Of a DNA stretch of 64,000 nucleotides, positions 43,537-64,000 are shown piece after piece (the first letter of the stretch is position 1; each line of letters starts with the position of its first letter). A program made the position numbers and the translations under genes. This stretch comes from an uncultured Bacilli bacterium (GTDB taxonomy: Bacteria > Bacillota_I > Bacilli_A > RF39 > UBA660): positions 15,328 to 79,327 of the forward strand of contig CAKPOS010000007.1 of the NCBI GenBank assembly GCA_934176955.1, given 5' to 3'. The notes under the pieces were generated by a model, which was given only the letters and a program-made list of their open reading frames with translations, did not search any database and was not told the origin of the DNA.

Positions 43537-43642
43537 GGCATAAGAAATTATGCTCACTCCATACGGAATAAAATGTAGGAGTGTATTCAACCAAAACCCC
43601 CTGAAATCCCAGCCGAGAGGCTGGGATACTTTGTTTATAAGG
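43537..43642 (+). ncRNA. Candidate ~100-nt small RNA whose 3' terminator hairpin is the integration target
   Basis: TTGCTT (43502-43507), 17 bp, TATGAT (43525-43530). Downstream there is no ORF but three hairpins: GCATA..TATGC, CACTCC..GGAGTG and ATCCCAGCC-GAGA-GGCTGGGAT, followed by ACTTTGTTT. Identity unknown. Confidence 0.3.
43597..43642 (+). repeat. att copy A (attL of element E1)
   Basis: CCCCCTGAAAT + 9-bp-stem GAGA-loop hairpin + ATACTTTGTTTATAAGG. The same 46-bp architecture recurs at 53972 and 63946. Confidence 0.8.
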
Positions 43643-43668
43643 ACTCCAAGCCATTTCATATATGTATT

Positions 43669-43689
43669 AGGTACCCAAATAGGTACCCA
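43669..43689 (+). repeat. E1 arm-type repeats, left end (2 x AGGTACCCA, 12-bp phasing)
   Basis: AGGTACCCA at 43669 and 43681, just outside the integrase stop codon. Confidence 0.7.
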
Positions 43690-43691
43690 TT

Positions 43692-44807
43692 TTAATTTAG
43701 TTTGTCGATAATGTCGATAATTTCATTCATTTTATTTTTAAATAGATGGGAATAAGTATTTAATGTCTCATCTATTTTTGTATGCCCTAGATATTTTGCA
43801 ACTACGTTTATACTTGCATTACTATTAATTAGTAATGATGCACAACTATGTCTAAAATCATGAATTCTTATTTGTTTAACTCCTGCTAGTTTACAATTTC
43901 TATTTTTACGACTTCTAATTCTACCGTTAGTAATTGGATCAGTATCTCCAAATACATACCACTTATTATTAAATCCATAATGTTTTTCTGAAACTTTATA
44001 TAAATCTTTTAAATCTTCAAGTAATACTTTAGGTATAGGAATTTCTCTTATGCTAGATTTTGTTTTAGGTGTAGTTACCATATAAGGTTTATTTTCATCA
44101 CCTTGAGTAGCAACTACATTTTTATTAACTCTTAAATAACTATTACCAAAATCTATATCATTCCAAGTAAGACCTCTAAGTTCACCTCTACGAAGACCAC
44201 AATAATATAAAGTTTCGTACATTGTTTTATATAAAATATCTTCTTCTACAGATATAAAACTTTTAAACTCTTCATAAGTAAAGAATAACATTTCTTTAGG
44301 CATTTCATTTGGATTAGTAAAATTAGTCATTTTATTGTAAGTAGTAGTAAAGTTAAAGTTATACCATTTACTAGCATAGTTTAATAATTCTTTAAAGAAT
44401 TTAAATAGATGATTTTTATGATTAGTTGTATAACCATAAGAATTAATTTCTTTTTTCCACTTTTCAAAATGTTCTATATTGAAATCTTTTAATTTAACAT
44501 TTTCTAAATTTTTAAAGAATTTTTGTCTATCTCTATAAGTTTTTAAAGTAGTAAATTTAACTTTATCTTCTTTATAAGCATAAAACAAAGTATATAAATC
44601 TTTAAAAGTCATATTACGATTATTATCAGCTCTTTCTGTATTAAGAGTAAGAAACTCTCTTTCAGCATTTAAAGCTTCCGTTTTAGTAAAAAACTTCTTT
44701 GACTTATATTTTCTTCTTGTGCCATCTAAATTCTTTACATAGTCATAAAATATCCATTTACGGCCATCTTTTGTCCATTCTGATTTATCTAATAATTTAA
44801 CTGCCAT
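43692..44807 (-). CDS. int: Tyrosine integrase with N-terminal arm-binding domain (E1)
   Basis: YCGLRRGEL (Arg I), HDFRHSCASLLI (H-x-x-R), LGHTKIDETLNTYSHL (Tyr). The N-terminal ~60 aa (WTKDGRKWIFYDYVKNLDGTRRKYKSKKFFTKTEA) looks like an arm-type DNA-binding domain. Confidence 0.9.
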   Translation of the reverse strand: MAVKLLDKSEWTKDGRKWIFYDYVKNLDGTRRKYKSKKFFTKTEALNAEREFLTLNTERADNNRNMTFKDLYTLFYAYKEDKVKFTTLKTYRDRQKFFKNLENVKLKDFNIEHFEKWKKEINSYGYTTNHKNHLFKFFKELLNYASKWYNFNFTTTYNKMTNFTNPNEMPKEMLFFTYEEFKSFISVEEDILYKTMYETLYYCGLRRGELRGLTWNDIDFGNSYLRVNKNVVATQGDENKPYMVTTPKTKSSIREIPIPKVLLEDLKDLYKVSEKHYGFNNKWYVFGDTDPITNGRIRSRKNRNCKLAGVKQIRIHDFRHSCASLLINSNASINVVAKYLGHTKIDETLNTYSHLFKNKMNEIIDIIDKLN

Positions 44808-45786
44808 AGTATTCCTCCTTTAAATCTAAATCATCGCTATCAAATTCTAAAGGTTCCTTATATTTAGCAGTATATAATCTTTCTGTTGCAGTTCGTTTAT
44901 TTTCTATTACAAGACCATTTCTTTCTAGTTCTTTTTTATAACTGGCAAGTAACTTACCGAAAGTTGATGGAATAACATTTAATTTTAACTTATTAACCAT
45001 ATCAGATGCTGTAAAAGTAAATTCTTTCATACTAATTGCATATCTAAAGAAAGTCATAATATTTTCATTCCATACTTCATCAGCAAAGTTATCAATATCA
45101 AGTATCAAGTTTTCATTTCTTTTCAGTACGTAATCTTTACTAGGGTAATCTCTGCTTTCATACTTTAAGTAAAAAGTAGATTTAATATTCTCGTCTTGTT
45201 TTAAAGCAATTTTACCATCTACACAGGTATCAATAGCAGTACTACCTAAAGATTTGCCTTTACGATTTAAATGATGAACTATAATAATAGCAACGTTATA
45301 ATTATTACAAAGTTTTCTTAACTGTGGAAATATATTTTGACTCATATCTTGATAATTATTTAAATCATAATTATTACCAAAATTAATTCCATTAAACATA
45401 TCTATAAATACTAATTTGCCATTATACTTTTCACTAAACTCAGCAATTTCTTTTTCAACTTTTAAGATACTTATTTGAGTTAAATTATCCTCAGGAAAAG
45501 TATAAAAGAAATCTTTATCATTTAAATCTAATTCCATAAACTTGATTCTACTAATAGTCTCTGATGGATTCATTTCTGTACTTAAATATAAAACAGGAGT
45601 TTTATTAGTCTTTAAATTTAGAAAAGGAAATCCATTAGCAACAGAGTTTGCTATTTGGAGAGCAATAGCAGATTTACCAACTTTAGCTTCTCCAAGTAAA
45701 CAATATAAACCATTTTCTCTAATCATATCTTCAATAATATAATTAATATCGACAATACTACATTTTAATTCTTCAATTGTTTTCAT
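44797..45786 (-). CDS. RepA-like RecA-fold ATPase (AAA_25-type), E1 replication/mobilisation protein
   Basis: Walker A GEAKVGKS, Walker B LVFIDMF, then IIVHHLNRKG typical of RepA/DnaB-C-like P-loop proteins. Overlaps the integrase start. Confidence 0.65.
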   Translation of the reverse strand: MKTIEELKCSIVDINYIIEDMIRENGLYCLLGEAKVGKSAIALQIANSVANGFPFLNLKTNKTPVLYLSTEMNPSETISRIKFMELDLNDKDFFYTFPEDNLTQISILKVEKEIAEFSEKYNGKLVFIDMFNGINFGNNYDLNNYQDMSQNIFPQLRKLCNNYNVAIIIVHHLNRKGKSLGSTAIDTCVDGKIALKQDENIKSTFYLKYESRDYPSKDYVLKRNENLILDIDNFADEVWNENIMTFFRYAISMKEFTFTASDMVNKLKLNVIPSTFGKLLASYKKELERNGLVIENKRTATERLYTAKYKEPLEFDSDDLDLKEEYYGS

Positions 45787-45798
45787 ATAATTTCCTTC

Positions 45799-46035
45799 CT
45801 ATAAATTTTCTTTAGCCATCTTTTCTAAATAATTAATATTTATTTTTAATTTATTAACGACTTCAATCATTGGTAATCTGTTGTTTGGTAGAGTGTAGCC
45901 TTTAAGTATAAGTTCATCTTTTATTTCACGTCTTAACTTAACAGCATTATTCTTACCAATCTCTGCAAGCTTCATCAAATCATTTATATCACACCATTGC
46001 TTGCTAATTAATTTTAAAGTTTCTCTAGCGTTCAT
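45799..46035 (-). CDS. Small DNA-binding protein, possible excisionase/regulator (E1)
   Basis: 78 aa. Paralogue of 57042-57293 in E2 (ETLKLI.KQWC...D.MKL...G.N.A.K...EIK). Position between the rep-like gene and the divergent XRE gene. Confidence 0.35.
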   Translation of the reverse strand: MNARETLKLISKQWCDINDLMKLAEIGKNNAVKLRREIKDELILKGYTLPNNRLPMIEVVNKLKININYLEKMAKENL

Positions 46036-46125
46036 ATAAAATTGTTCCTCCTTTCGTTTAAACTCTAGATAAAAATGATAACCTTTTATCTATGTAAGTG
46101 ATTACCAACTAAAGAAAGAAATTAT

Positions 46126-46204
46126 ATTGTGAGTATACTCACAATTACATATTATCATATAAAAATAATTTAAGTCAATACTTTTTGTGAGTTTAGTGAC
46201 AAAA
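46126..46204. promoter_or_regulatory. E1 switch region: 20-bp perfect palindrome plus related imperfect palindrome
   Basis: ATTGTGAGTATACTCACAAT (46126-46145) and TTTTGTGAGTTTAGTGACAAAA (46183-46204) lie in the divergent intergenic region. Downstream promoter TTGTTG-17-TGgTAAAAT (46209-46237) for the XRE gene. Confidence 0.5.
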
Positions 46205-46270
46205 TCTATTGTTGATTAATCTGATTTATGGTAAAATTAATATATAAAAAGCAAAAAGAGGTGTACTTTA

Positions 46271-46795
46271 ATGAAAGATAAAACTTTGGCTAGTGTTGTA
46301 AAAGAAGCTAGAGAAAAATTAGGTATTTCACAAAGAGAATTATCTAGAAGAACAGGTATTGATAATAATACAGTTGCTAAGATAGAAAAAGGAGAAAGAA
46401 AAAAGCCTAATATTTTATCATTAAGAAAATTAAGCGTTGTTTTAAATCTTGATTATAGAAACTTGATGGAATTATGTGATTATAGTAAAGAAGAAATAAA
46501 AGCAATTGCAGATAACAATTACTATAGTTTAGCAATTAGAAATAAAGATGCTTCAATATTAATGATGGAAGACTTAATAAATCTTGTACAAGAACAAAAA
46601 TATATTAAGTTAGTTTTAAAAGAGTTATTAGAAAATTGTGATGTTAATAATTTGAAATGTTTATCAGAACTTTCTAAAAAAGAAAAAACACAAGTAATAA
46701 AAAAACTAAATGAATTTATTGATGAGAATACTAAATCAATAGAAAATCATCAAAACTCAATTGAAAATTTAAATGGAATGTTAGGTAATAATTAA
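46271..46795 (+). CDS. XRE-family HTH regulator (E1 repressor candidate)
   Basis: HTH AREKLGISQRELSRRTGIDNNTVAKIEKGERK. C-terminal coiled region. Paralogue of 57739-58260. Confidence 0.8.
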   Translation: MKDKTLASVVKEAREKLGISQRELSRRTGIDNNTVAKIEKGERKKPNILSLRKLSVVLNLDYRNLMELCDYSKEEIKAIADNNYYSLAIRNKDASILMMEDLINLVQEQKYIKLVLKELLENCDVNNLKCLSELSKKEKTQVIKKLNEFIDENTKSIENHQNSIENLNGMLGNN

Positions 46796-46810
46796 TTTTT
46801 TCAGTCAGTA

Positions 46811-46872
46811 ATGACAGTATGACACTTATATAGATACTGTCAGTGGCTCTCGTACTGTTGTCACACTGTCAT
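46811..46872 (+). other. Conserved long hairpin H (E1 copy)
   Basis: ATGACAGTATGACAC ... GTTGTCACACTGTCAT arms around a ~30-nt loop. Homologous to 63737-63797 in E2, including loop bases (GGCTCTCGTAC versus GACTCTCATAC). Confidence 0.6.
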
Positions 46873-46875
46873 AGA

Positions 46876-46948
46876 GTTATTGTCTAGCAAGCAATGAATT
46901 TCTACTCCTGTATGAAATTCTAACGTGGGAATTATCCCAAACCCTTAA
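46876..46948. repeat. Left inverted repeat (IR-L) of the E1 cargo cassette
   Basis: Reverse complement aligns with 52986-53058. The inner 22 bp GGGAATTATCCCAAACCCTTAA matches TTAAGGGTTTGGGATAATCCCC except for one substitution (T for C). Outer parts are roughly three-quarters identical by eye. Confidence 0.75.
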
Positions 46949-46975
46949 AAGAAAATATTACAAAGAAAAAAGGAG

Positions 46976-47338
46976 ATGAAAAATAATATGAAATTGATTA
47001 AAAAGGAACAAGCAGAAATATTGAAAAATAGTGACACAAGTTCACTGTTAGAATACTCGATAGCATTAGATGAGAAAGATTTAGATTTTTGTGTAAATAC
47101 TATCACAGGAAGATATCCTGAAAAAGGTTATTGTACAAATGAAGAATGTAAAGAAATATGCTATATTCTCGAAGGTGAAGGATATATAAATAGAAAAGAT
47201 GAAACTATTAAATTTAAACAAGGTGATGTAATCTTTATAGACAAAAAAGATATTTATTTTTGGAAAGGTAATTGTAAAATAATAATGATATGCTCACCCG
47301 CATGGTATAAACAACAATGTAGGTTAATTGCTGAATGA
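46976..47338 (+). CDS. Cupin-fold small protein
   Basis: 120 aa. The EICYILEGEGYI...FKQGDVIFIDK pattern resembles a cupin barrel. No metal-ligand His pair is obvious. Confidence 0.45.
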   Translation: MKNNMKLIKKEQAEILKNSDTSSLLEYSIALDEKDLDFCVNTITGRYPEKGYCTNEECKEICYILEGEGYINRKDETIKFKQGDVIFIDKKDIYFWKGNCKIIMICSPAWYKQQCRLIAE

Positions 47339-47368
47339 TTTATAAAATGTTTTTGGGAGGAAATAAAG

Positions 47369-48682
47369 GTGAAAGAAAAATTAATTAATAATTTCTTAAG
47401 AATATCCAAAATACCAAGGGAATCAGGAAATGAGGAACATATAGCAAACTTTTTTGTTAATATTGCTAAGGAAAACAATTTAGAATATGTAAAAGATAAA
47501 AATAACAACGTATTAATTAAGAAGAAAGGAAACACTGATAGTGAACCAATTGCATTTCATTCTCACTTGGATATGGTATGTGTAAAATCAAAAGATAGTA
47601 ATCATAATTTTAAGAAAGATGGAATTGATGTCATAATTAATGGCGACAAAGTTACAGCTAATAATACTTCATTAGGAGCTGATCAGGGTGTGGGTTTAGC
47701 TATTATGCTAACGCTAATAGAGGACAAAGAAACGGAACACCCAAATTTAGAATTTCTTTTTACTACAGAAGAAGAAACAACTTTTAATGGAGTAGTTGCA
47801 TTTCCGTTTTCTCTTGTCGAGAGTAAAAGTATAATTAACTTGGATAGCGATAAAGATGATGCTATTTTTGTTGGAGCATATGGCGATATATGTAATGAAT
47901 ATGTATTTAAAGGAAAGTTGATTGAAAATACACTGCCCAGCTATAAAATTTTAATTGAAGACTTACCTGGTGGAAATTCTGGTAATAATGTTGAATTGTC
48001 TGAAAGAAATGCTATAACTACTATGGCTAAATTATTGAGTAATAAAGAAATCTATATAGCAAATATAAATGGCGGTACATCCGATAATGATATAGCTACA
48101 TCTTGTGAAGTAATAATTAGTACAAATCTTAATGTTAATGATATTTTCAGTGAAGTTGGTGTGAAAGTGACTGAAACAGATAACAAATTTACGTTTTCTA
48201 GGCAAGATACAGATTACATATTAAAACAAATATTGCAGTTAAAATGTGGATTTATTTCTTCTGAAAAGGCATCGGCTAATCTTGGGTTAATTAGTACAGG
48301 AAATGATGAGGTAAAAATTTATTATGTAATCAGAAGTATGGATGAAAAAGAATTAGAGGAAATTAGCAATAACAGTAAAAAATTAAATAATAACTTTATT
48401 GTGTCCGAAGTATATAGAGATTCTGTATGGGAAGTAAATAAAGACTCTAAACTAACTGAAAAATATAAAGAAATATATCATATGGAATATTCAGAATATC
48501 CTATAGAAAGTATTGTTCCTGGTGGTAATGAGTGTTCTGCAATTAAAAATAGAATTAAGGAAGTTGATATAATTTCAATTGGATGTAATATGGAAAATAT
48601 ACATACTACCGAAGAAATTACTTATGTTAGTTCGTGGGTAAAAATATATAATTTATTGTTAAATTTAATTAAATCAATATAA
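47369..48682 (+). CDS. pepD: M20C-family dipeptidase (PepD / Xaa-His dipeptidase-like)
   Basis: GTG start. FLRISKIPRESGNEEHIANF...NVLIKKKG...HSHLDMV, GADQGVG and TTEEET follow the PepD pattern. Confidence 0.65.
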   Translation: MKEKLINNFLRISKIPRESGNEEHIANFFVNIAKENNLEYVKDKNNNVLIKKKGNTDSEPIAFHSHLDMVCVKSKDSNHNFKKDGIDVIINGDKVTANNTSLGADQGVGLAIMLTLIEDKETEHPNLEFLFTTEEETTFNGVVAFPFSLVESKSIINLDSDKDDAIFVGAYGDICNEYVFKGKLIENTLPSYKILIEDLPGGNSGNNVELSERNAITTMAKLLSNKEIYIANINGGTSDNDIATSCEVIISTNLNVNDIFSEVGVKVTETDNKFTFSRQDTDYILKQILQLKCGFISSEKASANLGLISTGNDEVKIYYVIRSMDEKELEEISNNSKKLNNNFIVSEVYRDSVWEVNKDSKLTEKYKEIYHMEYSEYPIESIVPGGNECSAIKNRIKEVDIISIGCNMENIHTTEEITYVSSWVKIYNLLLNLIKSI

Positions 48683-48709
48683 ATTTTGAAATAAAGGAAG
48701 GTTAAAGAT

Positions 48710-49855
48710 ATGGATAAAGTAAAGATTCTATGGAGTGGTATAACAGGAAGAACTGGTAAAGAGGCATTCCAATTATCAAAGGAAAGTGATAGTGTAGAAA
48801 TCGTAGCAGGTATATGTAGGAATGATAGTAATTTTTATAATTATGATGAACTAGATAAAATAACTGAAGATTTTGATGTTATTGTGGATTTTTCTCATAA
48901 AGATAGTTTTGATAAAGTATTAAGTTATGCTTTGAAAGTTGGTAAACCAATTATAATTGGAACTGCAGGATTAACTGAAGAACAAATGAATGCTTTTGAA
49001 GAAGCTTCTAAAATTATACCTGTATTTAGAGGTGGAAATTTTAGATTTGATGTTAAGAATTTTATCGATCAAGTTGTTGCGTATGCAAGAACTTGTGAAG
49101 AAAATAATATAGAGTTAATTGAAACGCATTATAAAACTAAAAAAGTACCAAGTGAAACAGCAAAAGTTGTTGCTAAAAGAGTTTTAGATGAAACTGGTAA
49201 GAATGTGGAAATAAAATCATTTTTAGAATATGATGAGCTAATAAATGATTGGAAAGTTGCAGATTTACATTGTAGAGTTGTAGGATTTAAAGAATTAGCT
49301 AGAGATGTTTTAAATATTGCTGTAATGATGAAAAATAAGAAAGCAGATGGAATTTATGATTTAGATAGATTATTTAGAGAAAGAAATATAGATGATTTAT
49401 ATAAATTCTTAATTGAAGCGAAGAAACAAACTTATGCAAATGAAAATGTAAAAAAAGTAAATCCTTCAAGAAAAGGTTCTCATGATTATCATTATGAAAA
49501 TGATAAGATGATGTATCATGATACTTATTTTGGTGGAACTAAATTTATGGGGGAAGAAGTTGTATATTTTAATAATGAGACTCCAATTTGGGGAATGAAC
49601 TATTATGGTGTTACTATTGATGAAACACTTAGTGAGGAAGCTATGGATAAAGCATTAAGACCTGCATTAATGATGGTTGGAGAAGATACTAATGTAATAC
49701 CAGTAAGAGGTCCAAGAAATTATCAAAATGGTGAATATAAATATAATTTTTCAGTAACTGGAAATTTAGAAAACTTTGAAGGATGCGAAACAATTCATAA
49801 AGGAAAAACAAAAGTTTATGAGTTAAAATGTCATGGTGGAATAATTAAAAGATAG
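48710..49855 (+). CDS. DapB-like reductase fused to a DUF5680-like C-terminal domain
   Basis: DapB motifs GITGRTGKE, VDFSHKDS, IIGTAGLTEEQ and ETHYKTKKVPSETA. The C-terminal ~150 aa (TYANE...HDYHYENDKMMYHDTYFGGTKFMGEEVVYFNNETPIWGMNYYG) resembles DUF5680 as I recall it. Confidence 0.5.
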   Translation: MDKVKILWSGITGRTGKEAFQLSKESDSVEIVAGICRNDSNFYNYDELDKITEDFDVIVDFSHKDSFDKVLSYALKVGKPIIIGTAGLTEEQMNAFEEASKIIPVFRGGNFRFDVKNFIDQVVAYARTCEENNIELIETHYKTKKVPSETAKVVAKRVLDETGKNVEIKSFLEYDELINDWKVADLHCRVVGFKELARDVLNIAVMMKNKKADGIYDLDRLFRERNIDDLYKFLIEAKKQTYANENVKKVNPSRKGSHDYHYENDKMMYHDTYFGGTKFMGEEVVYFNNETPIWGMNYYGVTIDETLSEEAMDKALRPALMMVGEDTNVIPVRGPRNYQNGEYKYNFSVTGNLENFEGCETIHKGKTKVYELKCHGGIIKR

Positions 49856-49866
49856 GAGAAATATTT

Positions 49867-50553
49867 ATGAAAAAAACAATAGCAATTACAGGTGGTAGTG
49901 ATGGTTTAGGTAAAGCTATTGCCAGAAGACTTAATGCTGAGAATAATGTTATTATAATTTCAAAGGATGAAGAAAGTTTAATTAAAACTGCTGAAGAAAT
50001 TAATTGTGATTATTATGTTTGCGATGTAACTGATTATAAACAAGTAAATAATACAATAAACGATATTTTAGACAAAAATAATAAAATAGATATATTAATA
50101 AATAATGCAGGAATTTGGTTAGCAGGAGATTTGACCGAAACTGATTATGAAAGAATAAGTAATTGTATTGACGTTAATACAAAAGGGCCTATATATATGA
50201 CAAAAGCAGTATTGCCAAGTATGTATGAAAATAAAGAAGGATTAATTATAAATGTATGTTCACAAGCAAGTTTTGATAGTGATGACTTCTCAACTGTATA
50301 TAATGCATCTAAGTGGGCTATGAGAGGATTTAATCGTTCTATACAAAAAGATGTAAGTAAAAAAGGGGTAAAAGTAACTGGTTTTTATCCTGGGTTTATG
50401 CAAACAGATATATTTAAAAAAGCAGGTAATGACTATGATACTTCAACAGGTTTGGAAGTAGAAAAAGTGGCAAAAGCAATAGAATTTATTGTAAATTGCG
50501 ATGAAGATGTTATTATTCCAGAATTTGGAATTAAAGATATAGAAAATTATTAG
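49867..50553 (+). CDS. Short-chain dehydrogenase/reductase (SDR)
   Basis: TGGSDGLGKAIA cofactor motif, NNAG, catalytic YNASK. Confidence 0.85.
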   Translation: MKKTIAITGGSDGLGKAIARRLNAENNVIIISKDEESLIKTAEEINCDYYVCDVTDYKQVNNTINDILDKNNKIDILINNAGIWLAGDLTETDYERISNCIDVNTKGPIYMTKAVLPSMYENKEGLIINVCSQASFDSDDFSTVYNASKWAMRGFNRSIQKDVSKKGVKVTGFYPGFMQTDIFKKAGNDYDTSTGLEVEKVAKAIEFIVNCDEDVIIPEFGIKDIENY

Positions 50554-50584
50554 AGTAGTTTGATTTATAAATCAGGAGGTTTAA

Positions 50585-52970: not shown

Positions 52971-52985
52971 ATAGTTCAATGTTAA

Positions 52986-53058
52986 TTAAGGGTTTGGGAT
53001 AATCCCCATATATGAATTGTTGCGGGAGTAAGAATTCAGTGCTGGCACAGACAACAAT
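52986..53058. repeat. Right inverted repeat (IR-R) of the E1 cargo cassette
   Basis: See IR-L. TTAAGGGTTTGGGATAATCCCC at 52986-53007, then GGAGTAAGAATTCAGTGCTGGCACAGACAACAAT aligning with the reverse complement of 46876-46910. Confidence 0.75.
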
Positions 53059-55821: not shown

Positions 55822-56075
55822 TTATTTTGACCTCCTTTCAATGCTTGTTTTAAAATAATACTCTATCTCACTAGGGCATAATATATGCCCAACCGTGAGC
55901 TAAGGAATATTCCTTAGAATCCTTTATGCTTGTAATAGCTAGAACCAATACCTAATAAATAGGTAATGGCATTCGCTATCACAAGATTAATTAAACGATA
56001 TACCATATCATTTAATTAATGGATAATGAATTTACTATCGCCACTTCCAACCTTACAGGTCAGAACGTGCCACGT
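55822..56075. other. Structured non-coding region, candidate oriT of E2
   Basis: Noticeably more G+C than its surroundings. Nested hairpin CTCAC-TA-GGGCAT-AATAT-ATGCCC-AACC-GTGAG, perfect palindrome CTAAGGAATATTCCTTAG, and TACCT..AGGTA. Immediately 5' of the relaxase relic. Confidence 0.4.
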
Positions 56076-57026
56076 TTATTCATTATTTTCGGAAGGTTCT
56101 TCATAAGAACAATGCCATAATCTTTCGTTAGCAGTTCTTTTACTTGTTATATGAAGACCTTCTTTTTCAAGCAATTGTAGGTTTCTTTGAATTAAACCTC
56201 CAAGTTGTGTTGGTGTTAATAAAATATTTGTTTTAGATAAGATATCTGATATAGTGTAATCAAAATCTTTCTTAGCAACTGCATATTTTATAAATAGAAG
56301 TAGATTATAATCGGTTTCATCATCAGTATTTTCATCTATAACACTAAATGTTTGATTTTCATTTCTTTTCAAATTTAATTCTAATCTACTAAAATCCCTA
56401 CCTTTATAATCTAAAGTTAGTTTATTACAATTACTTTTTGACTCTTTTAATTTCATAATTCCAGATGCATCAGCAGTTAGTCCGACACTACCCATAATTC
56501 CATTACTTTTATTTAAGTGATGTGTAACAAATAATGTGCAGTTATATTTTCTACATATTTCTTTAAACTTTTTAAATACAACATTATTTATTTCTTGATA
56601 ATCATTTTGATTATAGTTACTATCAAATTTAATGTCTTTAAACATATCAATTATTACGAATAAAGGTTCTTTATCAAAGGTTAATTCATGAATGTCTCTT
56701 TCAATATCTCTGATATAAAAATCTGGAATATCATCTATGTCTATAATGTGAAGTTTATCTACATTAGGTTTCAAATTCATTAATTTAAATCGGTCTTATA
56801 ATTGATTTATATCGCCCTCTGTGGTAATATATAAGACATGAGAGGGATTTACTTTGAATCCTAAAAAATCTTCTCCAGTAGTAAGAGAGAAGGCAAGTTG
56901 CTGAGCAAACATTGACTTGCCAACCTTAGGATGAGATACAAGTAGATAAACTCCATTTGATATCATTAGGTTTTCGACGATGATATCTTTTTTTATGCTT
57001 TTATTTACTTCGTTTATTTGTTTCAA
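56076..57026 (-). pseudogene. RepA-like RecA-fold ATPase interrupted by one in-frame TAA (E2)
   Basis: ORFs 56796-57026 (Walker A HPKVGKS) and 56076-56780 are in the same frame, separated only by the TAA at 56796-56798 (...DINQL*DRFKLMNLKP...). Collinear with the intact E1 gene 44797-45786. Confidence 0.8.
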
Positions 57027-57041
57027 TTTGTATCTCCTTTC

Positions 57042-57293
57042 TTACATGTTTTTAATTAATTGTTTACTAGAAACTCTAGATTCTAAATAAGAAATATCTA
57101 TATCAAAGAAAGCTACAACTTCTTTAGTTGGTACAACAGACTTTGGAATAAGATAACCTTGTTTTTCAAGCTTTTCTTTTATTTCCTTTTTAGCCTTTAG
57201 TGCAGAATTTCTTCCTAGATGTCCAAGTTTCATAATATCTTCTAGAGTGCACCATTGTTTAGCTATTAATTTTAATGTTTCTTCTGCAGACAT
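57042..57293 (-). CDS. Small DNA-binding protein, possible excisionase/regulator (E2)
   Basis: Paralogue of 45799-46035. Confidence 0.35.
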   Translation of the reverse strand: MSAEETLKLIAKQWCTLEDIMKLGHLGRNSALKAKKEIKEKLEKQGYLIPKSVVPTKEVVAFFDIDISYLESRVSSKQLIKNM

Positions 57294-57323
57294 TTTTATC
57301 CTTCTTTCTAAATTTTTTAATAA

Positions 57324-57575
57324 TTATTTTTGTGGTGATACATAAACGTAATATGTATCATCTAATGAATTATAGATAATATATTTTTTCTTTCTTAATT
57401 CTCTAAATGCTAGAGCAACATCTTTTTTACTATCATTACTAAGAGAGTAGAGGTCAGTATTTTCAAGTTCATCATTAGATCTAACTAATAGAGAGTTAAG
57501 CATACCTATAGCGCTAACTGACAAATCTTTAGGTATTACATATTCATTAGTAGTTTGTTTCTTTAGTAATTTCAT
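57324..57575 (-). CDS. Hypothetical small protein (83 aa)
   Basis: ATG at 57575 is preceded by an AGGAGGA RBS (57581-57588). The longer 108-aa track ORF has no RBS. Confidence 0.4.
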   Translation of the reverse strand: MKLLKKQTTNEYVIPKDLSVSAIGMLNSLLVRSNDELENTDLYSLSNDSKKDVALAFRELRKKKYIIYNSLDDTYYVYVSPQK

Positions 57576-57598
57576 ACAAGTCCTCCTTTCTATAATTA

Positions 57599-57667
57599 TG
57601 TCCGATATTAAGGACAATTCAAATATAGCATTGTCCGAAAAAGATGTCAATACTTTTTGTCCGAAAA
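57599..57667. promoter_or_regulatory. E2 switch region: three TGTCCGA sites (one within the inverted repeat TGTCC-N8-GGACA)
   Basis: TGTCCGATATTAAGGACA (57599-57616). TTGTCCGAAAA at 57631 and 57657 (26-bp phasing). Downstream promoter TAGACA-17-TGcTAAAAT (57670-57698). Confidence 0.5.
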
Positions 57668-57738
57668 TATAGACAAATTGATAAAAAAGTGCTAAAATTA
57701 AATTGTGAAGGAAGAAAAGGGAAGAAAGAAGTGATTAA

Positions 57739-58260
57739 ATGAACTCAGAAGAACTTAAGAATTTAATTGAATCTGCAAGAGTAGAAAAAGGCATTTCTCA
57801 AAGAGAACTAGCTAAATTAACTGGTATAAGTAGAAGTACATTAAATGATTTAATTAATGGAAAAATAAAAAAAGTAGATATTGATGATCTACGAAAGATT
57901 GCTGAAACATTAGATATGTCTTTACAAAAATTATTAAAGGTTGCAGGTTATGATGAAATGCTTTTCTATTTTTCTAAAGATAAATATGCAAATAAATCTA
58001 GTAAAGATTTAAAAGAAATGATTAAAAATTATGAAGAATCTCAAAGAAATTTATTAGATTTCGATACTGAAAAAAGAAAAAAAGTAAGTGATGCAAGACA
58101 AAAACTATTTTATACAATAGAACACTTACAAATAATGAAAGATAATAAGGATAGCTTATATACAATAGATAAAGCAATTGAAGATATACAATATGCCTTT
58201 GATGAATTAGAATTTGCAGAACATAAATACGATTATAGTAAATTGCCAAAGAAAAACTAA
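57739..58260 (+). CDS. XRE-family HTH regulator (E2 repressor candidate)
   Basis: HTH ARVEKGISQRELAKLTGISRSTLNDLINGKIKK. Confidence 0.8.
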   Translation: MNSEELKNLIESARVEKGISQRELAKLTGISRSTLNDLINGKIKKVDIDDLRKIAETLDMSLQKLLKVAGYDEMLFYFSKDKYANKSSKDLKEMIKNYEESQRNLLDFDTEKRKKVSDARQKLFYTIEHLQIMKDNKDSLYTIDKAIEDIQYAFDELEFAEHKYDYSKLPKKN

Positions 58261-58270
58261 AGGAGATGAG

Positions 58271-58852
58271 ATGATGAATGTTATCAAATTTAATTTAGAT
58301 GATCTTGAAAAACAAGAAACAGGTTTTTCATATTATTTATTAGGGAGAAGTTATGATTTAGAAGAAAACGATGCTACACAGGATTACAATAAAGCATTAG
58401 AATATTATTTAAAAGGTTTTAATATTGATTATCCATTATGCACTTATTCTTTAGGAATTTCTTATGAACTAGGATTAGGAGAATTATTAGAAATAGATAA
58501 AAATAAAGCAAAAGAACTTTTGAATAAGGCTTATCCTAAAATAATTGAATTAATAAATAATCCTGATATATCTGATGTAGAAAGAATTTATGCTAAATTT
58601 GTGTTAGGTGCTTATTACTATTTTGGACTAGGAAATATTGAAAGAGATTATAATAAAGCATTTAAAACTATTAAAGAATGTGCAGATAATGGACATATTG
58701 CTGCAATTTATGATTTAGGTGCTAATTTTTACTATAATGGAAATGGCACTGAAGTTAATTATGAATTAGCAGATTATTATTTAAATATTGCTAAAGAAAA
58801 TGGTTTAAAAAGAGCAATAGACTTATGTAACTCTAGACATAAAACTAAATAA
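58271..58852 (+). CDS. Sel1-like (SLR/TPR) repeat protein
   Basis: ATG at 58271 after AAGGAG. Repeated A..YY.KG......A.Y.LG..Y..G.G units (e.g. YNKALEYYLKGFNIDYPLCTYSLGISYELGLG). Confidence 0.65.
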   Translation: MMNVIKFNLDDLEKQETGFSYYLLGRSYDLEENDATQDYNKALEYYLKGFNIDYPLCTYSLGISYELGLGELLEIDKNKAKELLNKAYPKIIELINNPDISDVERIYAKFVLGAYYYFGLGNIERDYNKAFKTIKECADNGHIAAIYDLGANFYYNGNGTEVNYELADYYLNIAKENGLKRAIDLCNSRHKTK

Positions 58853-58867
58853 AATGGAGGTCAAATA

Positions 58868-59404
58868 ATGCCTAAAATAAATTTAAATAATCTTGAAATT
58901 AGAACTTGTAATAGTAACGATGTTAAAGATATTTATAATATTCAAGAAATAGTAATTAATAACTTTAAAAAAGAAGAAAAAGGGTATTTTTTACCTTTTA
59001 CTGAAGAATGGTATTTAAGAATTGTAAATAATCCTGATAAAGACGGTGAAATATATGGAGCATTTTGTAATAATAAAATGATTGCATGGATATTTTTATC
59101 AGTATCAACACGAATGGAACAAATTAAAAGTTTTATTCCTGATATTGATGGAAAATGTGCTGACATTGATGGAGTTATAGTTTTACCTGAATATAGGGGA
59201 AATGCGCTTCAAAAAATACTTGTAAATTATTTAGAAAGTAAAGCAAAAGAAAAAGGTATTACAAATATAGTTGCAGAAGTTACTTTTGGAAATGATTTCA
59301 GTTTAAATAATTTGCAATCTTTAGGTTATGAAATAAAGACTTGGTATCAAAAAGATGAAAATATAAAAAGACACATTTTGCTAAAGAAGTTAAAAAATGA
59401 TTAA
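58868..59404 (+). CDS. GNAT-family N-acetyltransferase
   Basis: Motif A GVIVLPEYRGNALQKILVNYLESKAKEKG. Confidence 0.75.
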   Translation: MPKINLNNLEIRTCNSNDVKDIYNIQEIVINNFKKEEKGYFLPFTEEWYLRIVNNPDKDGEIYGAFCNNKMIAWIFLSVSTRMEQIKSFIPDIDGKCADIDGVIVLPEYRGNALQKILVNYLESKAKEKGITNIVAEVTFGNDFSLNNLQSLGYEIKTWYQKDENIKRHILLKKLKND

Positions 59405-60314
59405 AATAAACGAGATAAATAGTAATATTGAAAATTTAAAGAAATCTTTACCAAGTTTAGAAATTGATAGTGTATTTTTAGAGCAAGGTGGAAAAATAGA
59501 AAAATTGTTTTATAAAGATGAGAGTTTACATGAACTAAGAAGTTGTGCTAAATTGCTTGTAGCAATGGCTATTGGTATAGCAATTGATAAAGAGATGATA
59601 ACACTAGACACACCAATTTATCCTTCTATTAAAAATATTGTTAATGTTACAAATAAAAGTAATTTAGAAAAAATAAAGCAATGGACTGTAAGAAATCTAT
59701 TAACTCATACAACAGGATATGAAAAACAAATGATGTCGGAAAACTATATAAAAAATATTGATAAAAATAAATTATTAGATTATGCTCTTAACTATGATAT
59801 TCCATACAATGTTGATACTAGGTTTGCTTACAATAATGTTGAACCATTTATTTTGTCAGTATTTTTTCAAGAATCATTTAATATTAATTTAACAGATTTT
59901 ATTAAAGAAAATATATTTGATAAATTAGAAATTGTTGATTATAAATGGGAAAATTATGGAAAATACTGTCCGGCTTCAACTGGACTTTATCTTAATCATA
60001 GTGATTTTCATAAGATTGGTAAATTACTATTAAATGGTGGAAAATATAATAATATCCAAGTTGTTCCTGAAAAGTGGATAAATCAAATGTGTATATTACA
60101 ACTTGAAACACCTTCAGCATATAAACCAGAAAGATTGTTACCTAAAATTGGTGTTGGCTATTATACTTTTATTTCAAGAGATGGCTATGTATTTAGAGAT
60201 GGATCTAATGGTCAATATATTATAATTAATAAAGAAAAAAATCTTTTAATAACTATTATGTCTACAGAAAAAGATATGAAAAATGTAACTGAAATTTTAA
60301 GAAATATGATATAA
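59397..60314 (+). CDS. Beta-lactamase-related serine hydrolase (class C/PBP4*-like)
   Basis: SxxK (SCAK) near the N-terminus, YxN (YNN), LLTHTTGY. Confidence 0.6.
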   Translation: MIKINEINSNIENLKKSLPSLEIDSVFLEQGGKIEKLFYKDESLHELRSCAKLLVAMAIGIAIDKEMITLDTPIYPSIKNIVNVTNKSNLEKIKQWTVRNLLTHTTGYEKQMMSENYIKNIDKNKLLDYALNYDIPYNVDTRFAYNNVEPFILSVFFQESFNINLTDFIKENIFDKLEIVDYKWENYGKYCPASTGLYLNHSDFHKIGKLLLNGGKYNNIQVVPEKWINQMCILQLETPSAYKPERLLPKIGVGYYTFISRDGYVFRDGSNGQYIIINKEKNLLITIMSTEKDMKNVTEILRNMI

Positions 60315-60355
60315 ACTACATGTAAGTTTATCATTTTGCATATGGGAGGTGTAAT

Positions 60356-61099
60356 ATGAGAATTGATTTTCATTGTCATACAAAAGCAGTAAAAAGCGGT
60401 GAAAATAAAACGAGGAATATAAATGCTACAGATTTTAAAGAAGCAATAAAAGATGCTAGAGTTAAAATGGTTGCTATTACAAATCATAATTCTTTTGATA
60501 AAAACCAATTTGATGAATTTTATAAGAAAGTTAACAATGATTTTATTCTATTACCAGGTATAGAATTAGATACAATTGGTATTAAGAATGAAAAAGGTCA
60601 TATTGTTATAGTGTATGATGATAAAGATTTAAACACTTTTGATAATAAAGTTAGTAAATTATTAGAAGGAACTAACCCGGATACTTTCACAATTGATATA
60701 GAAAAGTTGATCGAATTTATAAATAATATTAATTGTATAGTATTAGCTCATTATTTTAAACCCGATGCTTTAGATATTGAATCAATAAATTACATAAAAG
60801 AAAAAATAACAGATAATTTTAGATTGTTTTATGAACCAAGTAATTATAGAACATTAGGCATAATGATAAATCACAATTTTAGGGCTTTAAAAGGAACAGA
60901 TATTGTTGATTGGAAAGACTATGGGAAGCAAGAATTTGCTAACATTAAATTAGATATTGATTCATATAAACAATTTATTAAATTTTTAAAGAAAGATAAA
61001 ACGGTAATAGAAAGTCTTTTAAATAAACAAACAAAGTATAGTGTTGACATCGGATATAAAGTGATGGTCATGAATTTGTTGATTTATATGATGACGTGA
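60356..61099 (+). CDS. PHP-domain phosphoesterase/nuclease (N-terminal half of a Ppl/TrlF-like protein)
   Basis: MRIDFHCHTKAV...MVAITNHNSFD and LAHYF follow the PHP His/Asp motif order. Its last ~14 codons look out of frame relative to the downstream ATPase. Confidence 0.7.
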   Translation: MRIDFHCHTKAVKSGENKTRNINATDFKEAIKDARVKMVAITNHNSFDKNQFDEFYKKVNNDFILLPGIELDTIGIKNEKGHIVIVYDDKDLNTFDNKVSKLLEGTNPDTFTIDIEKLIEFINNINCIVLAHYFKPDALDIESINYIKEKITDNFRLFYEPSNYRTLGIMINHNFRALKGTDIVDWKDYGKQEFANIKLDIDSYKQFIKFLKKDKTVIESLLNKQTKYSVDIGYKVMVMNLLIYMMT

Positions 61100-62457
61100 A
61101 TGTGTTTTTTGGTACAAAAGGAACTGGAAAATCTGTCAGTTTAGAAAAAATTGAAAAATATTTCAAAGATAATGGAAAGAAAACAAGTTCTTATTCTCCA
61201 AATGATAATAAAGATAAACTTGATCAAAGATTAAAAATATTAGATGATGAAAGAAAAATGTCTTCTTATGATAGGAATAATTATTCTTATGAGTTTTCAG
61301 ATATTAATGAATGGACAGAACCAGATGTTACTCAGTTTATTGATTATATAAATTATGTAAAATATAAGGATCAAAATGCTAATAAAAAGCGAATGAAAAT
61401 AGTTGAGATAAGAAATGTGTTAGGATATAATAATAAAATATTACAAACCAGCAAACAGGACTTTGAAAACTTAAATACGGTAATGAATTTATTGAATAAT
61501 ATTGATATAAAAAAATATATCGTCCAAGAAAAAGAAGGACAATTGATAAAATTAACTAATGAATTATTGGAAAGCATAAAAGAAGCATATTCTTATAATT
61601 TTGATGAAAAAACATCAATTAAACTTACTAATAATGCCGTAAGTAAAATTAAAACAATTGTCGAGAAGAAAACCGAAACAAAAACTATTCCAAATGAAAC
61701 TGGATTTATCAATTTTGCAAAAAAGCATTTTTCCTTAGAAATTAGTATTAACAAAATATTAGATGGCTTTAAATTTGAATATGTATCTAATCCTGAGTAT
61801 ATAGGAAAACTTGAAGAAGAAAAATTATTATATAAAAAGACCATGATAACTATGCTAAATGATTCTAGTAAATCAGATGATGGATTTAAAGGTATAAATA
61901 ATTTAAAAGAAATAAAAGGAATTCTAAAAGCTATAAAAAATGATGTTTATAATGACAATCTTGCTGAGGATATTAGCAACTATAAAGAAAAATATGAGCA
62001 GAATTTATCGTTAGATGATTTTATAGGGATTACAAAGAAATTTGTTGTAGATGGTAAAGACTATAAGCCTTCAACCGGAGAAGCAACTATGATTGTTCTT
62101 AACGATGCACTTGATGATAAATATGACATTTATATTTTAGATGAGCCAGAAAAAAGTTTGGGAAACAATTATGTTAGTGACGTTTTGGTTTCAAGATTAA
62201 ACGATTTAGCAAAAATGAAAAAAGTCGTAGTTGTAGCAACTCACAATGCTAATGTTGCAGTTAGAACCATGCCATATAGATCAATTTTGAAAGTCTATGA
62301 TAATGGCGAATATAAAACATTTATAGGCAATCCATATGTTAATAAATTAGTAAATATTAAAGATGAAAATGACTATAAAGATTGGAAAGAAGAGAGTATT
62401 AGAATACTAGAGGGTGGAAAAGAAGCTTTTGAGGAAAGAATTGATATTTATGCTTAA
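61096..62457 (+). CDS. ABC/SMC-like ATPase (C-terminal half of a Ppl/TrlF-like protein)
   Basis: Walker A GTKGTGKS only 6 codons after the nominal GTG start. Long helical insert. PSTGE (signature-like), Walker B IYILDEPEKSLG, and ATHN (H-loop). Confidence 0.7.
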   Translation: MNVFFGTKGTGKSVSLEKIEKYFKDNGKKTSSYSPNDNKDKLDQRLKILDDERKMSSYDRNNYSYEFSDINEWTEPDVTQFIDYINYVKYKDQNANKKRMKIVEIRNVLGYNNKILQTSKQDFENLNTVMNLLNNIDIKKYIVQEKEGQLIKLTNELLESIKEAYSYNFDEKTSIKLTNNAVSKIKTIVEKKTETKTIPNETGFINFAKKHFSLEISINKILDGFKFEYVSNPEYIGKLEEEKLLYKKTMITMLNDSSKSDDGFKGINNLKEIKGILKAIKNDVYNDNLAEDISNYKEKYEQNLSLDDFIGITKKFVVDGKDYKPSTGEATMIVLNDALDDKYDIYILDEPEKSLGNNYVSDVLVSRLNDLAKMKKVVVVATHNANVAVRTMPYRSILKVYDNGEYKTFIGNPYVNKLVNIKDENDYKDWKEESIRILEGGKEAFEERIDIYA

Positions 62458-62821
62458 TGAAAGAATTAATCTAATAGATGCAACTCTTACAAGAAATGAT
62501 ATTGAACAAATAGTTATTAGGTTTAATATTGATAGTAATAACTATGACTTAAACTTACAGAGTAATAATTCTGAAGACATAAAAAAGGTGTTTTTAGAAT
62601 TATCAAGGATAATTAGAATTACACCTATTAAAATAGAACTAAAGATAAATGAAAATATTGATGAAAAAAAAGATAATTTATTTATAGAAACAGCATATGA
62701 GTATATTAATCAGTTAAATGATGAAATGCTTGAATTGGAAAATGATGATGATTTGAAGACCATTAGAAATTTTATTAATAATGGCAATGAAAATAAAGGA
62801 GAGGACAATAATGAAAAATAA
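62450..62821 (+). CDS. Small acidic protein coupled to the ATPase
   Basis: ATG at 62450 overlaps the ATPase stop by 8 nt. 123 aa, Asp/Glu/Asn-rich C-terminus. No motif recognised. Confidence 0.45.
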   Translation: MLNERINLIDATLTRNDIEQIVIRFNIDSNNYDLNLQSNNSEDIKKVFLELSRIIRITPIKIELKINENIDEKKDNLFIETAYEYINQLNDEMLELENDDDLKTIRNFINNGNENKGEDNNEK

Positions 62822-63365
62822 TTATTTACTAATACATGGTAGTTTTGGAAGCCCATTTGTGAATTGGTTTCCATATTTGAGAAGAGAAATTGAAAACAAA
62901 AATTTAGAAGTATATACTCCAGATTTTCCAACAGGAGTTGGATATCAAAATTATGTAAATTGGTCAAAAATATTGAAATGCTATCTAGATGCAGGAATAA
63001 TAAATGAAAATACAACTATATTTGCTCATTCGATTGCACCTGTATTTATTTGCAAGTTCTTAATTGAAAACAAAGTAAAAGTTAAAAGATTAGTATTTGT
63101 ATGTGGATTTAACAATTATTTAGGAATAAATGAAGAATACGATGCGGTAAATGAAAGTATGTTTTTAGATAATTTAGGAGATGTAAAAAAATATTGTTCT
63201 GATATTGTTTGTTATTATTCTGATAATGATCCTTATGTTAAATATGATGGGGAAAAAGAATTTGCTGATGCCATAACAAATAATCAAATAATAATAAAAG
63301 ATGGTGGACATTTAAATTCTGAATCTGGATACTCAGAATTTGCGGATTTATTAAAATATTTATAA
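62811..63365 (+). CDS. YdeN/RBBP9-like alpha/beta serine hydrolase
   Basis: ATG at 62811. LLIHGSFGSPFVNWF, nucleophile elbow FAHSIA, DGGHLN. Confidence 0.6.
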   Translation: MKNNYLLIHGSFGSPFVNWFPYLRREIENKNLEVYTPDFPTGVGYQNYVNWSKILKCYLDAGIINENTTIFAHSIAPVFICKFLIENKVKVKRLVFVCGFNNYLGINEEYDAVNESMFLDNLGDVKKYCSDIVCYYSDNDPYVKYDGEKEFADAITNNQIIIKDGGHLNSESGYSEFADLLKYL

Positions 63366-63382
63366 TCTGAAAGGAATAAAAT

Positions 63383-63730
63383 ATGAATAGAGATTTTGCT
63401 GAACAGTGGCTTAATGATTTAAAAAAATATTGGTTTAATAAAGATATTGAAAGTGCAGTTTCATTATTTAACAAAACAACATTCTATCAAGAAACACCAT
63501 TCATGAATCCGTATACTACTATAGAAGAAATTAATCAAGAATGGCAACATATAAAAAATGAGAATATACAAGATATAGAAATAAATATATTAGCAATAGA
63601 TGAAAATATATTAATTGCACATTAGATATTAAAACAAAATGATAAAGATTATGATGGAATTTATGAAATAAAATTTAATAATAATTCAGAATGTATATAT
63701 TTTAAAAGTTGGGAAATGGTAAATGAATAA
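63383..63730 (+). pseudogene. NTF2/SnoaL-like small protein with an in-frame TAG
   Basis: The 80-aa ORF stops at TAG 63623-63625, but the same frame continues for 34 more codons (ILKQNDKDYDGIYEIKFNNNSECIYFKSWEMVNE) to TAA 63728-63730, completing a typical NTF2-like beta-sheet. Confidence 0.6.
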
Positions 63731-63736
63731 GAAAAA

Positions 63737-63805
63737 ATGACACAGTGACACTATAAATGCATGTGGGGGACTCTCATACAATGTGTCACTGTGTCATTTT
63801 TGTTT
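63737..63805 (+). terminator. Conserved long hairpin H (E2 copy), terminator-like
   Basis: Perfect 15-bp arms ATGACACAGTGACAC / GTGTCACTGTGTCAT, 31-nt loop, then TTTTGTTTT. Confidence 0.6.
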
Positions 63806-63807
63806 TC

Positions 63808-63829
63808 CAGATACCAAATCTAGATACTA
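63808..63829 (+). repeat. E2 arm-type repeats, right end (CAGATACCA + TAGATACTA)
   Basis: Same 9-mer family and orientation as at 54044-54085. Confidence 0.65.
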
Positions 63830-63945
63830 ATTGCAAAAAATAAAGTTATTTTAATAAACTTTAGTAAATTTAACAAAATTAAAAAGCCTTATAATATAAG
63901 ACTTTAACTAATTATTAAATTGTTACGAACTGATATTAAGATTTT

Positions 63946-63992
63946 CCCCTGAAATTCTCCTCGAGAGAGGGGAATACTTTTGTTTATAAGGG
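63946..63992 (+). repeat. att copy C (right end of E2)
   Basis: CCCCTGAAAT + ATTCTCCTC-GAGA-GAGGGGAAT hairpin + ACTTTTGTTTATAAGG. The flanking GGATTTTTAA matches the left end of E2. Confidence 0.8.
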
Positions 63993-64000
63993 ATTTTTAA

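Follow-up and report, generated by a model that had tools for sequence, protein, structure and literature searches.

A probable tandem array of integrative and mobilizable elements at the end of a putative small RNA gene in an uncultured Bacilli bacterium

Three att copies and at least three units downstream of xerC

We analyzed 64,000 nucleotides of DNA from an uncultured Bacilli bacterium (GenBank assembly GCA_934176955.1, contig CAKPOS010000007.1, positions 15,328 to 79,327; this whole stretch is called the window), in which two integrative elements, named E1 and E2, follow a putative small RNA (sRNA) gene. Upstream of them lie uvrA (39576-42416) and a housekeeping gene of the xerC/xerD type (42478-43350; called xerC below). 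Three copies of an attachment site (att), at 43597, 53972 and 63946, delimit E1 (43606-53971) and E2 (53981-63945), which are arranged head to tail, span ~10 kb each and carry element-specific arm repeats at both ends in one orientation. The GC content is 25.5% in the elements versus 29.0% in the host. Feature coordinates are listed in Table 1, and L-numbers (L001, L013, L222 etc.) denote comparison loci that were fetched, 2.4 Mb in total.

An earlier sequence-only reading of the window had proposed that a 46-bp module occurs three times and is the att site shared by two stacked elements. Indeed, a degenerate pattern of the module matched exactly at 43599, 53974 and 63947 and nowhere else in the 64 kb, none being expected from shuffled sequences, and the three copies could be aligned over ~46 nt. 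The three copies are real, but the shared site is shorter than the module. The only sequence common to all junctions was (C)CCCCTGAA, of 8-9 bp: att1 and att2 share ~9 identical bases only and then continue into different hairpins, and in another assembly of the same species the right end of E1 reads ...GATTTTGGCCCCCTGAA followed by GAGGAATCGAAAGATTCCTC, with a hairpin unrelated to that of the window. Since the hairpins after the core differ in this assembly and in sister species, the core is limited to (C)CCCCTGAA, and strand exchange must, judging from these junctions, occur within it (CCCCCTGAA in the 9-nt form). The hairpin and the TTTATAAGG stretch are part of each element's integrase-proximal arm, outside the att core. 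The similarity of the E1 and E2 hairpins is best explained by homologous arms, and the compensatory changes in their stems by selection for the hairpin.

The array continues beyond the third att copy. The source contig stops ~35 nt after the window, at the att3 repeat, and two contigs that extend past att3 (L001 and L002) revealed a third unit, in which an E2-type arm is followed directly by a truncated XRE gene. The array comprises at least three units, the third being a still smaller remnant than E2. The two stacked elements of the sequence-only reading were confirmed, but the array is longer than that reading had assumed.

Its description of the units themselves held. A minus-strand ORF (open reading frame) matching Phage_integrase opens the interval behind each of the first two att copies, and each element has its own 9-mer arm repeats, which were located on both sides, mostly with 12-bp spacing. 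The backbones are collinear and diverged, with identities of ~41% for the integrase (Int), ~33% for the AAA_25 ATPase, ~50% for a small protein and ~35% for the XRE-type regulator, and the cargo is unrelated.

The att core is the 3' end of a putative sRNA body

The att core forms the last 9 nt of the body of the putative sRNA, which is predicted to consist of two hairpins (P1 and P2) and an unpaired C-rich tail. The fold of the window sRNA, two hairpins followed by an unpaired tail, had a z-score of -4.5. In sister species (XerC 68-88% identical), the promoter-like block TTGCTT...TATTATGAT is kept and the sRNA is nearly unchanged; after ...CCCCCTGAA, each of them has a different GC-rich hairpin with a T-tract. 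ARAGORN found no tRNA or tmRNA gene in the window, and the att core does not lie in such a gene. Furthermore, Rfam 15 gave no gathering-level match in the window, and even at E<=10 the surroundings of the locus and 15 homologous loci yielded chance-level matches only. The tail had no match in IMG/VR, and its complements in the window and the 2.4 Mb of fetched loci were 9-12-nt matches at chance level only, so far as targets are concerned.

In an exact-match scan, the 20-mer of the tail was present in at least 120 metagenome contigs. From the matches listed we drew 89 distinct sRNA bodies and 73 downstream loci, to which the following counts refer. All 89 bodies share the layout of two hairpins, tail and terminator, with ~60 different sequences per stem and a tail that is identical throughout. 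Alignment-free stem statistics were used in place of a consensus fold. In 84 of the 89 bodies, versus 23% of shuffled sequences, P2 forms a perfect stem of 6 bp or more directly next to the tail. The median fold z-score was -4.3, and the tail was unpaired in 84/89. Each of the six outer P2 pairs occurred as 4-6 pair types, and when the two P2 strands were taken from different sequences, full pairing was seen in 9% only. These data argue for a putative, conserved sRNA gene with its own predicted promoter and terminator.

At ~6217 in L159, ~400 nt downstream of the sRNA of that locus, a 19/20 inverted copy of the tail (AAGGGGGTTTTGGTTGAATA) was observed. This sequence may represent a second sRNA-like copy in convergent orientation or else the remnant of an inverted att site.

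The terminator of the sRNA is element borne. The E1 terminator hairpin accompanies E1-type elements in other hosts, and the E2 left arm lies directly behind the sRNA in L024, L114 and L202; L213 and L222 have a variant of this arm type, GTTCCCTC-GAGA-GAGGGAAC. A terminator-like hairpin starting at most 4 nt from the core was found in 102 of 104 distinct core-joined sequences, which had 44 different stems and 62 GNRA loops. Since each element carries a terminator hairpin in its own arm, the sRNA would keep a terminator whichever element is inserted.

An apparently functional E1 and a decayed E2

The backbone ORFs of E1 are all open. Its integrase has a weak Arm-DNA-bind_4 match in Pfam and belongs to the phrog_1 integrases of PHROG, and the nearest solved structure is Tn1549 Int; the best phage relative is only 33% identical, and no match was found in IMG/VR. 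The AAA_25 protein has no relative in PDB. The 78-amino-acid (aa) protein has no family match in Pfam or NCBIfam, and our guess is that it is an excisionase (directionality factor) or a regulator. E1 is apparently a functional branch that lacks a relaxase, and its close relatives in L176 and L221 likewise lack one.

The 6-kb cargo of E1 is bracketed exactly by a 33-nt inverted repeat (46916-46948 and 52986-53018; 18 nt perfect, ATTATCCCAAACCCTTAA), with TnpV just outside. Among all fetched loci, this repeat occurred in E1 copies only, and it may mark a nested cassette or a terminator pair. The cargo includes a candidate anti-phage pair, PDC-M37A (50585-51505) and PDC-M37B (51432-52970), with PADLOC values of 4e-76 and 4e-132, respectively. 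PDC-M37B contains an AAA_2 domain like that of ClpB and is similar to DolB as well.

E2 differs from its intact relatives by four lesions. Compared to L114, an 848-bp deletion has removed Int residues 1 to ~57-62 (Int aligned to a 372-aa full-length relative) and ~197 C-terminal residues of the MobV relaxase (Mob), the gene of which also has a frameshift; intact 460-470-aa versions of MobV are encoded in L013, L114 and L222. Compared with L015, where the AAA_25 gene is intact (316 aa), one C-to-T change accounts for the nonsense codon in this gene of E2. In the cargo, two ORFs at 60356-62457, one of 247 aa with a PHP domain and one of 453 aa for an ABC-like ATPase, jointly match PDC-M49A and the TrlF family. 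Since their counterpart in L222 is a single 700-aa ORF, the gene in the window is probably broken. A reading of the split genes with genetic code 4 (Mollicutes) was considered and dropped: long host ORFs are open in table 11, and the TAA of the AAA_25 gene came from a C-to-T change.

From these comparisons, E2 is best described as a decayed copy of a mobilizable element of the L114/L222 type, with the gene order Int-MobV-AAA_25-XRE. Its integration and transfer genes are lost or inactivated, and both att copies and the arm repeats are kept (TAGATACCA-like repeats on the left at 54044, 54056 and 54077, with right-end counterparts at 63808 and 63821), as in a cis-mobilizable element (CIME). The decay is incomplete, since the catalytic domain of the integrase is still an open ORF. 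We conclude that E2 is approaching the CIME state.

Table 1. Features of the sRNA gene, the array and the conjugation module (window coordinates)
Feature	Position	Strand	Evidence
TrbL_4/VirB6-like membrane protein	1690-3717		
VirB4/TraG-P-loop ATPase	4657-6441		
SpoIID + NlpC/P60 + beta-lactamase2 cell-wall hydrolase	6462-8720		
Putative promoter (-35/-10) of the sRNA gene	43497-43530	+	Consensus scan match ATGACT-17-TATATT; predicted function
Putative sRNA body: P1 43537-43554, P2 43555-43583, single-stranded C-rich tail TATTCAACCAAAACCCCCTGAA 43584-43605	43537-43605	+	
att copy 1, core CCCCCTGAA; attL of E1	43597-43605	+	Sole sequence common to all junctions
E1-borne terminator ATCCCAGCC-GAGA-GGCTGGGAT + T-tract, now ending the sRNA	43606-43637	+	Terminator scan
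E1 left arm repeats, 2 x AGGTACCCA at 43669 and 43681 (12-bp spacing)	43669-43689	+	
E1 tyrosine integrase, 371 aa, full length	43692-44807	-	Pfam Phage_integrase, E 1e-26
E1 AAA_25/DnaB_C-like ATPase, putative replication helicase	44797-45786	-	Pfam AAA_25 1e-22; PHROG primase/helicase families
E1 78-aa conserved backbone protein	45799-46035	-	All family members have a homologue at this position
E1 XRE-type regulator, divergent from the backbone operon	46271-46795	+	Pfam HTH_3 7e-14
E1 cargo block within the 33-nt inverted repeat: cupin, M20 peptidase, DapB_N-DUF5680, SDR, PDC-M37A, PDC-M37B	46916-53018	+	Pfam, PADLOC
E1 right-end genes: 103-aa ORF, TnpV (120 aa)	53113-53783	-	Pfam TnpV 9e-34
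E1 right arm repeats AGGTACCCA and AGGTACTCA at 53837 and 53849 (12-bp spacing; last copy with 1 mismatch)	53837-53857	+	
att copy 2, core CCCCCTGAA; junction of the E1 right end and the E2 left end	53972-53980	+	
E2 left arm: terminator hairpin ATTCCCCTC-GAGA-GAGGGGAAT (53981-54002) and three TAGATACCA-type arm repeats (54044-54085)	53981-54085	+	
E2 integrase of 310 aa with a truncated N-terminus; arm-binding domain lost by deletion, catalytic domain kept	54109-55041	-	Pfam Phage_integrase 7e-26
E2 MobV (Mob_Pre) relaxase pseudogene; C-terminus deleted, frameshift	55032-55821	-	Pfam Mob_Pre 5e-06; three-frame translation
E2 AAA_25 pseudogene, Q77 to stop	56076-57026	-	Two ORFs, each matching AAA_25
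E2 83-aa homologue of the E1 78-aa protein; 108-aa ORF	57042-57650	-	
E2 XRE-type regulator	57739-58260	+	Pfam HTH_3 2e-15
E2 cargo: Sel1-repeat protein, GNAT, beta-lactamase-fold protein, split PHP + ATPase, 135-aa ORF, Ser_hydrolase, 80-aa ORF	58214-63625	+	Pfam, PADLOC, NCBIfam
E2 right arm repeats CAGATACCA and TAGATACTA	63808-63829	+	Same repeats in L222
att copy 3, core CCCCTGAA (63946-63953), and left arm of the third, E2-type remnant, which leaves the window	63946-64000	+	

Occupancy of the site in related genomes

The E1-E2 junction was present in at least seven independent assemblies, obtained from different samples and with different assemblers (metaSPAdes NODE, MEGAHIT k141 and other scaffolds) and including a 207-kb contig. 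What follows E1 is variable: in L013 and L019, a different, intact element adjoins the same right end of E1, and behind it L013 has a third element, which is full length and of the E2 type. In sister species, the first position behind the sRNA is taken by an E2-type element (L024), another type (L023) or a fourth type (L130). At the CCCCCTGAA core we counted at least three integrase lineages, which are 40-52% identical. The proposals that distinct integrases use one core and that accessory and defence cargo accretes at this hotspot are both borne out by these differences between assemblies and sister species.

The intact layout of the family, defined from L013, L114, L137, L165, L196, L220 and L222, consists of an integrase (372-381 aa), a Mob_Pre/MobV relaxase (460-494 aa), an AAA_25 protein (~316-329 aa), a protein of 78-85 aa, a divergent XRE gene and variable cargo, in many cases related to defence. 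In L222, recG-sRNA is directly followed by an intact E2-type element (GNAT 99% identical), after which come a further att copy and a remnant. This locus was found in a homologue search with the E2 GNAT protein, which did not return the protein of the 207-kb contig. An E1 backbone that is 95% identical at the DNA level was found in L221, with an unrelated host flank, a different sRNA body and different cargo. Across hosts with different sRNA bodies and cargo, the backbone ORFs of E1 are 95-100% conserved, and since they are also intact, recent transfer is implied.

Downstream sequence of 1.5 kb or more was available for 73 metagenomic sRNA loci, of which 16 have a family integrase within 700 nt, 16 have backbone remnants and 41 have neither. 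At many of these 41 integrase-free loci, defence-type genes follow immediately, as read from ORF translations and not from a family search. A second copy of core and hairpin was located 0.2-10 kb downstream at 13 loci. Very short att-bounded segments of 0.2-1.6 kb were observed behind the sRNA in L103, L136, L150, L210 and L215. These segments point to a decay of islands into miniature remnants in which both copies of core and hairpin are retained.

In L022 (9992-11900), from a sister species (XerC 88% identical), the sRNA is inverted and lies 1.8 kb from xerC, with two restriction-endonuclease-like genes (called from the sequence, not by family search) in between and no integrase. This arrangement looks like a rearranged remnant of an earlier island. 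In five loci from related metagenome-assembled genomes (MAGs; GTDB), L023, L024, L025, L027 and L028, the contig ends 0.3-1 kb after xerC. The break falls just past the sRNA gene in L023, L024, L027 and L028, and L025 is without the sRNA core. Stacked repeats may break short-read assemblies at this locus.

Class of the elements and rival explanations

We regard it as very probable that the locus holds a tandem array of at least three units of one family of integrative and mobilizable elements (IMEs), which tyrosine integrases have inserted at one 8-9-bp core at the end of the sRNA gene, with accretion and decay. Each element has its own site-specific integrase, full length in E1 and reduced to the catalytic domain in E2, and both integrases are tyrosine recombinases (PF00589) with the R...HxxR...Y signature, visible in the motifs GLRRGE, H(D/S)FRHSCAS and TY(S/A)H. 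The att copies are direct repeats at a specific target, and the same core is used in other hosts. In line with the sequence-only reading, no families of a type IV secretion system (T4SS) were detected among the E1 and E2 ORFs. The complete T4SS with coupling protein that defines an integrative and conjugative element is absent from 43606-63945. IMG/VR and PLSDB contained no or negligible relatives, and the relaxase is essentially without a relative in PLSDB.

At 1-9427, the window contains a conjugation module of the Gram-positive type, inside which the window begins. This module could be a helper for MobV elements. The IME reading is strengthened by this module and by the full-length MobV in intact E2 relatives, and the gene order of the intact family members is that of an IME.

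Several points weigh against the array and sRNA interpretation. Comparison across related genomes, as the sequence-only reading had suggested, yielded alternative occupants but no strictly empty attB in the same species, where all contigs carry E1 next to xerC; the nearest case is L022. Circular attP junctions, also suggested there, were absent from the fetched loci. Neither the right end of the array nor the terminator native to this strain was recovered, exact-protein look-ups having returned short contigs only. E1 is devoid of a relaxase gene and of an identified origin of transfer (oriT), and the mob gene of E2 is a pseudogene. As for the sRNA, RNAalifold applied to a raw MAFFT alignment of 88 bodies gave no consensus structure, because the variable hairpins were misaligned, and the covariation evidence therefore rests on the alignment-free stem analysis. 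Since the bodies were collected by exact matching to a 20-mer of the tail, part of the tail's invariance is a product of the search. Moreover, where expression counts, transcription of the sRNA gene is predicted from its sequence features.

It is unlikely, in our judgment, that the array is a fossil, a static defence island in which no unit, not even E1, is still mobile. The four inactivating lesions of E2, the stub that forms the third unit and the position of E1 next to xerC in all recovered conspecific contigs would fit such a state; it agrees poorly with the intact E1 backbone, which is conserved across hosts and implies recent transfer, and with the different occupants of the position after E1 in different strains. 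Distinctly improbable is a set of satellites resembling phage-inducible chromosomal islands (PICIs), packaged by a helper phage instead of being mobilized by conjugation. The sequence-only reading had left IME-like and satellite-like elements side by side, and the size of ~10 kb, the integrase at one end, the XRE-type regulator, the helicase-like replication protein and the lack of a relaxase in E1 are features in common with satellites. However, the Pfam, PHROG and NCBIfam matches of the annotated ORFs included no terminase small subunit (terS), capsid-remodelling or packaging-interference genes, the intact family members encode the Mob_Pre relaxase, and neither the sRNA tail nor the E1 integrase, with its distant phage relatives, has any match in IMG/VR. 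Of the two possibilities, the IME reading is favored.

A chimera of metagenome assembly, in which E1 and E2 are alternative occupants in different strains that were joined via a shared repeat, is very improbable. A repeat-induced break would explain why the source contig stops just past att3, and many related contigs break at the locus. Nevertheless, the ~9 bases shared by att1 and att2 are too short to mislead k-mers of 55-141, and the E1-att2-E2 junction is not chimeric, because it recurs in the independent assemblies, the 207-kb contig among them. We find it barely credible that the repeats are copies of a common intergenic terminator or of a sequence like repetitive extragenic palindromes (REP), flanking ordinary variable chromosome. 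The terminator hairpin in the module could be taken that way, but only three copies exist in 64 kb, the first two each precede an integrase with matching arm repeats at both ends of the unit, and the third precedes an E2-type arm and a remnant. Elsewhere, the repeats lie downstream of the sRNA gene, and unrelated hosts have the same units behind this sRNA core. A dispersed intergenic repeat family, which would have spoken against the sequence-only reading, was not what we found.

Returning to the IME array, the excision and integration activity, the pore-hijacking transfer and the post-excision replication by AAA_25 that we infer would proceed as follows. The integrase would recombine attP with the 3' end of the sRNA gene within CCCCCTGAA, between the body and the terminator. 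The hairpin of the element would then terminate the sRNA, and the displaced terminator would shift to the far end of the array. Since the hairpin adjoins the core in the integrase-proximal arm, integration would swap the terminator and would not destroy the sRNA gene. Every insertion would add a core copy, and later arrivals could use any copy, leading to accretion. For transfer, a MobV relaxase would act with a conjugative pore supplied in trans, and the AAA_25 protein would support replication of the excised circle. E2 would be mobile only with help, using an integrase provided in trans, or in cis within a composite.

In summary, our analysis goes beyond the sequence-only reading in five respects: the target is a putative sRNA gene, the hairpin is owned by the element, E2 is defective, E1 is without a relaxase, and the array is longer than two units.

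Relation to known systems and significance

Streptococcal IMEs have a mean size of ~10 kb, accrete in tandem at one target, use same-site integrases that are 21-69% identical and frequently have decayed partners (CIMEs); some of them, such as IMESag-rpsI, have MobV relaxases (PMC5357655; PMC5704250 section 2.3). The units described here resemble them in their size, the target-proximal tyrosine integrase, the direct att repeats between units, the decayed partners, the presence of MobV in some members and the 40-52% identity of integrases sharing the site. They differ in their host, an uncultured gut Bacilli bacterium, and in their target, a non-coding sRNA instead of a protein or tRNA gene. Furthermore, the backbone contains a helicase-like AAA_25 gene, no relaxase is present in E1, and the proteins have only remote relationships to characterized ones. 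Accretion and decay of IMEs are a known phenomenon, whereas this IME family and its sRNA target are new.

Genomic islands and prophages can enter a tRNA or tmRNA gene at its 3' end and rebuild the end of that gene, for which Williams (2002) is said to be the source. As with such islands, insertion is into a small stable RNA gene, in its 3' part, the integrase gene is adjacent, the element supplies the 3' sequence, and arrays occur at one gene. Unlike in tRNA and tmRNA genes, the crossover would fall after the functional body, so that the terminator alone is replaced, and the replacement hairpins differ freely in sequence. Horizontally acquired DNA at enterobacterial sRNA loci, for example at the ryeA/ryeB (SraC/SdsR) hot spot of Salmonella, was reportedly described by Balbontin in 2008. 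There, as here, an sRNA gene is a recurrent insertion point for different mobile elements; the phylum, the sRNA and the type of element are different, and here one IME family has a precise shared core. The sRNA itself can be compared with RsaE/RoxS, trans-acting sRNAs of Firmicutes with C-rich motifs, which are short and have hairpins, an exposed C-run and an intrinsic terminator. The putative sRNA is likewise a short hairpin RNA with an exposed C-run and an intrinsic terminator, but it has no sequence or Rfam similarity to them.

With middling confidence, we propose that the sRNA body (~70 nt, plus terminator), with its two covarying hairpins and invariant 20-nt C-rich tail, is the founding member of an undescribed, widespread family of riboregulators in uncultured gut and rumen Bacilli. 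A whole IME family would use the 3' end of this sRNA as its dedicated landing pad, and the locus would be the main anchor of this clade for defence and accessory islands, with incoming elements rewriting the terminator of the sRNA and possibly changing its stability or level.

The array offers a natural series for the study of accretion and decay, consisting of an intact element, an internally deleted copy and a stub, and it explains in practical terms why MAG contigs of the clade break at this locus. It also points to an uncharacterized IME family (Int-MobV-AAA_25-XRE) that would move candidate defence systems (PDC-M37 and PDC-M49-like) between uncultured gut Bacilli. The interest of the locus lies mainly in the sRNA family, which is unannotated and serves as an anchor for islands: this putative RNA family, which has strong comparative support and no Rfam entry, can be modelled, searched and tested.

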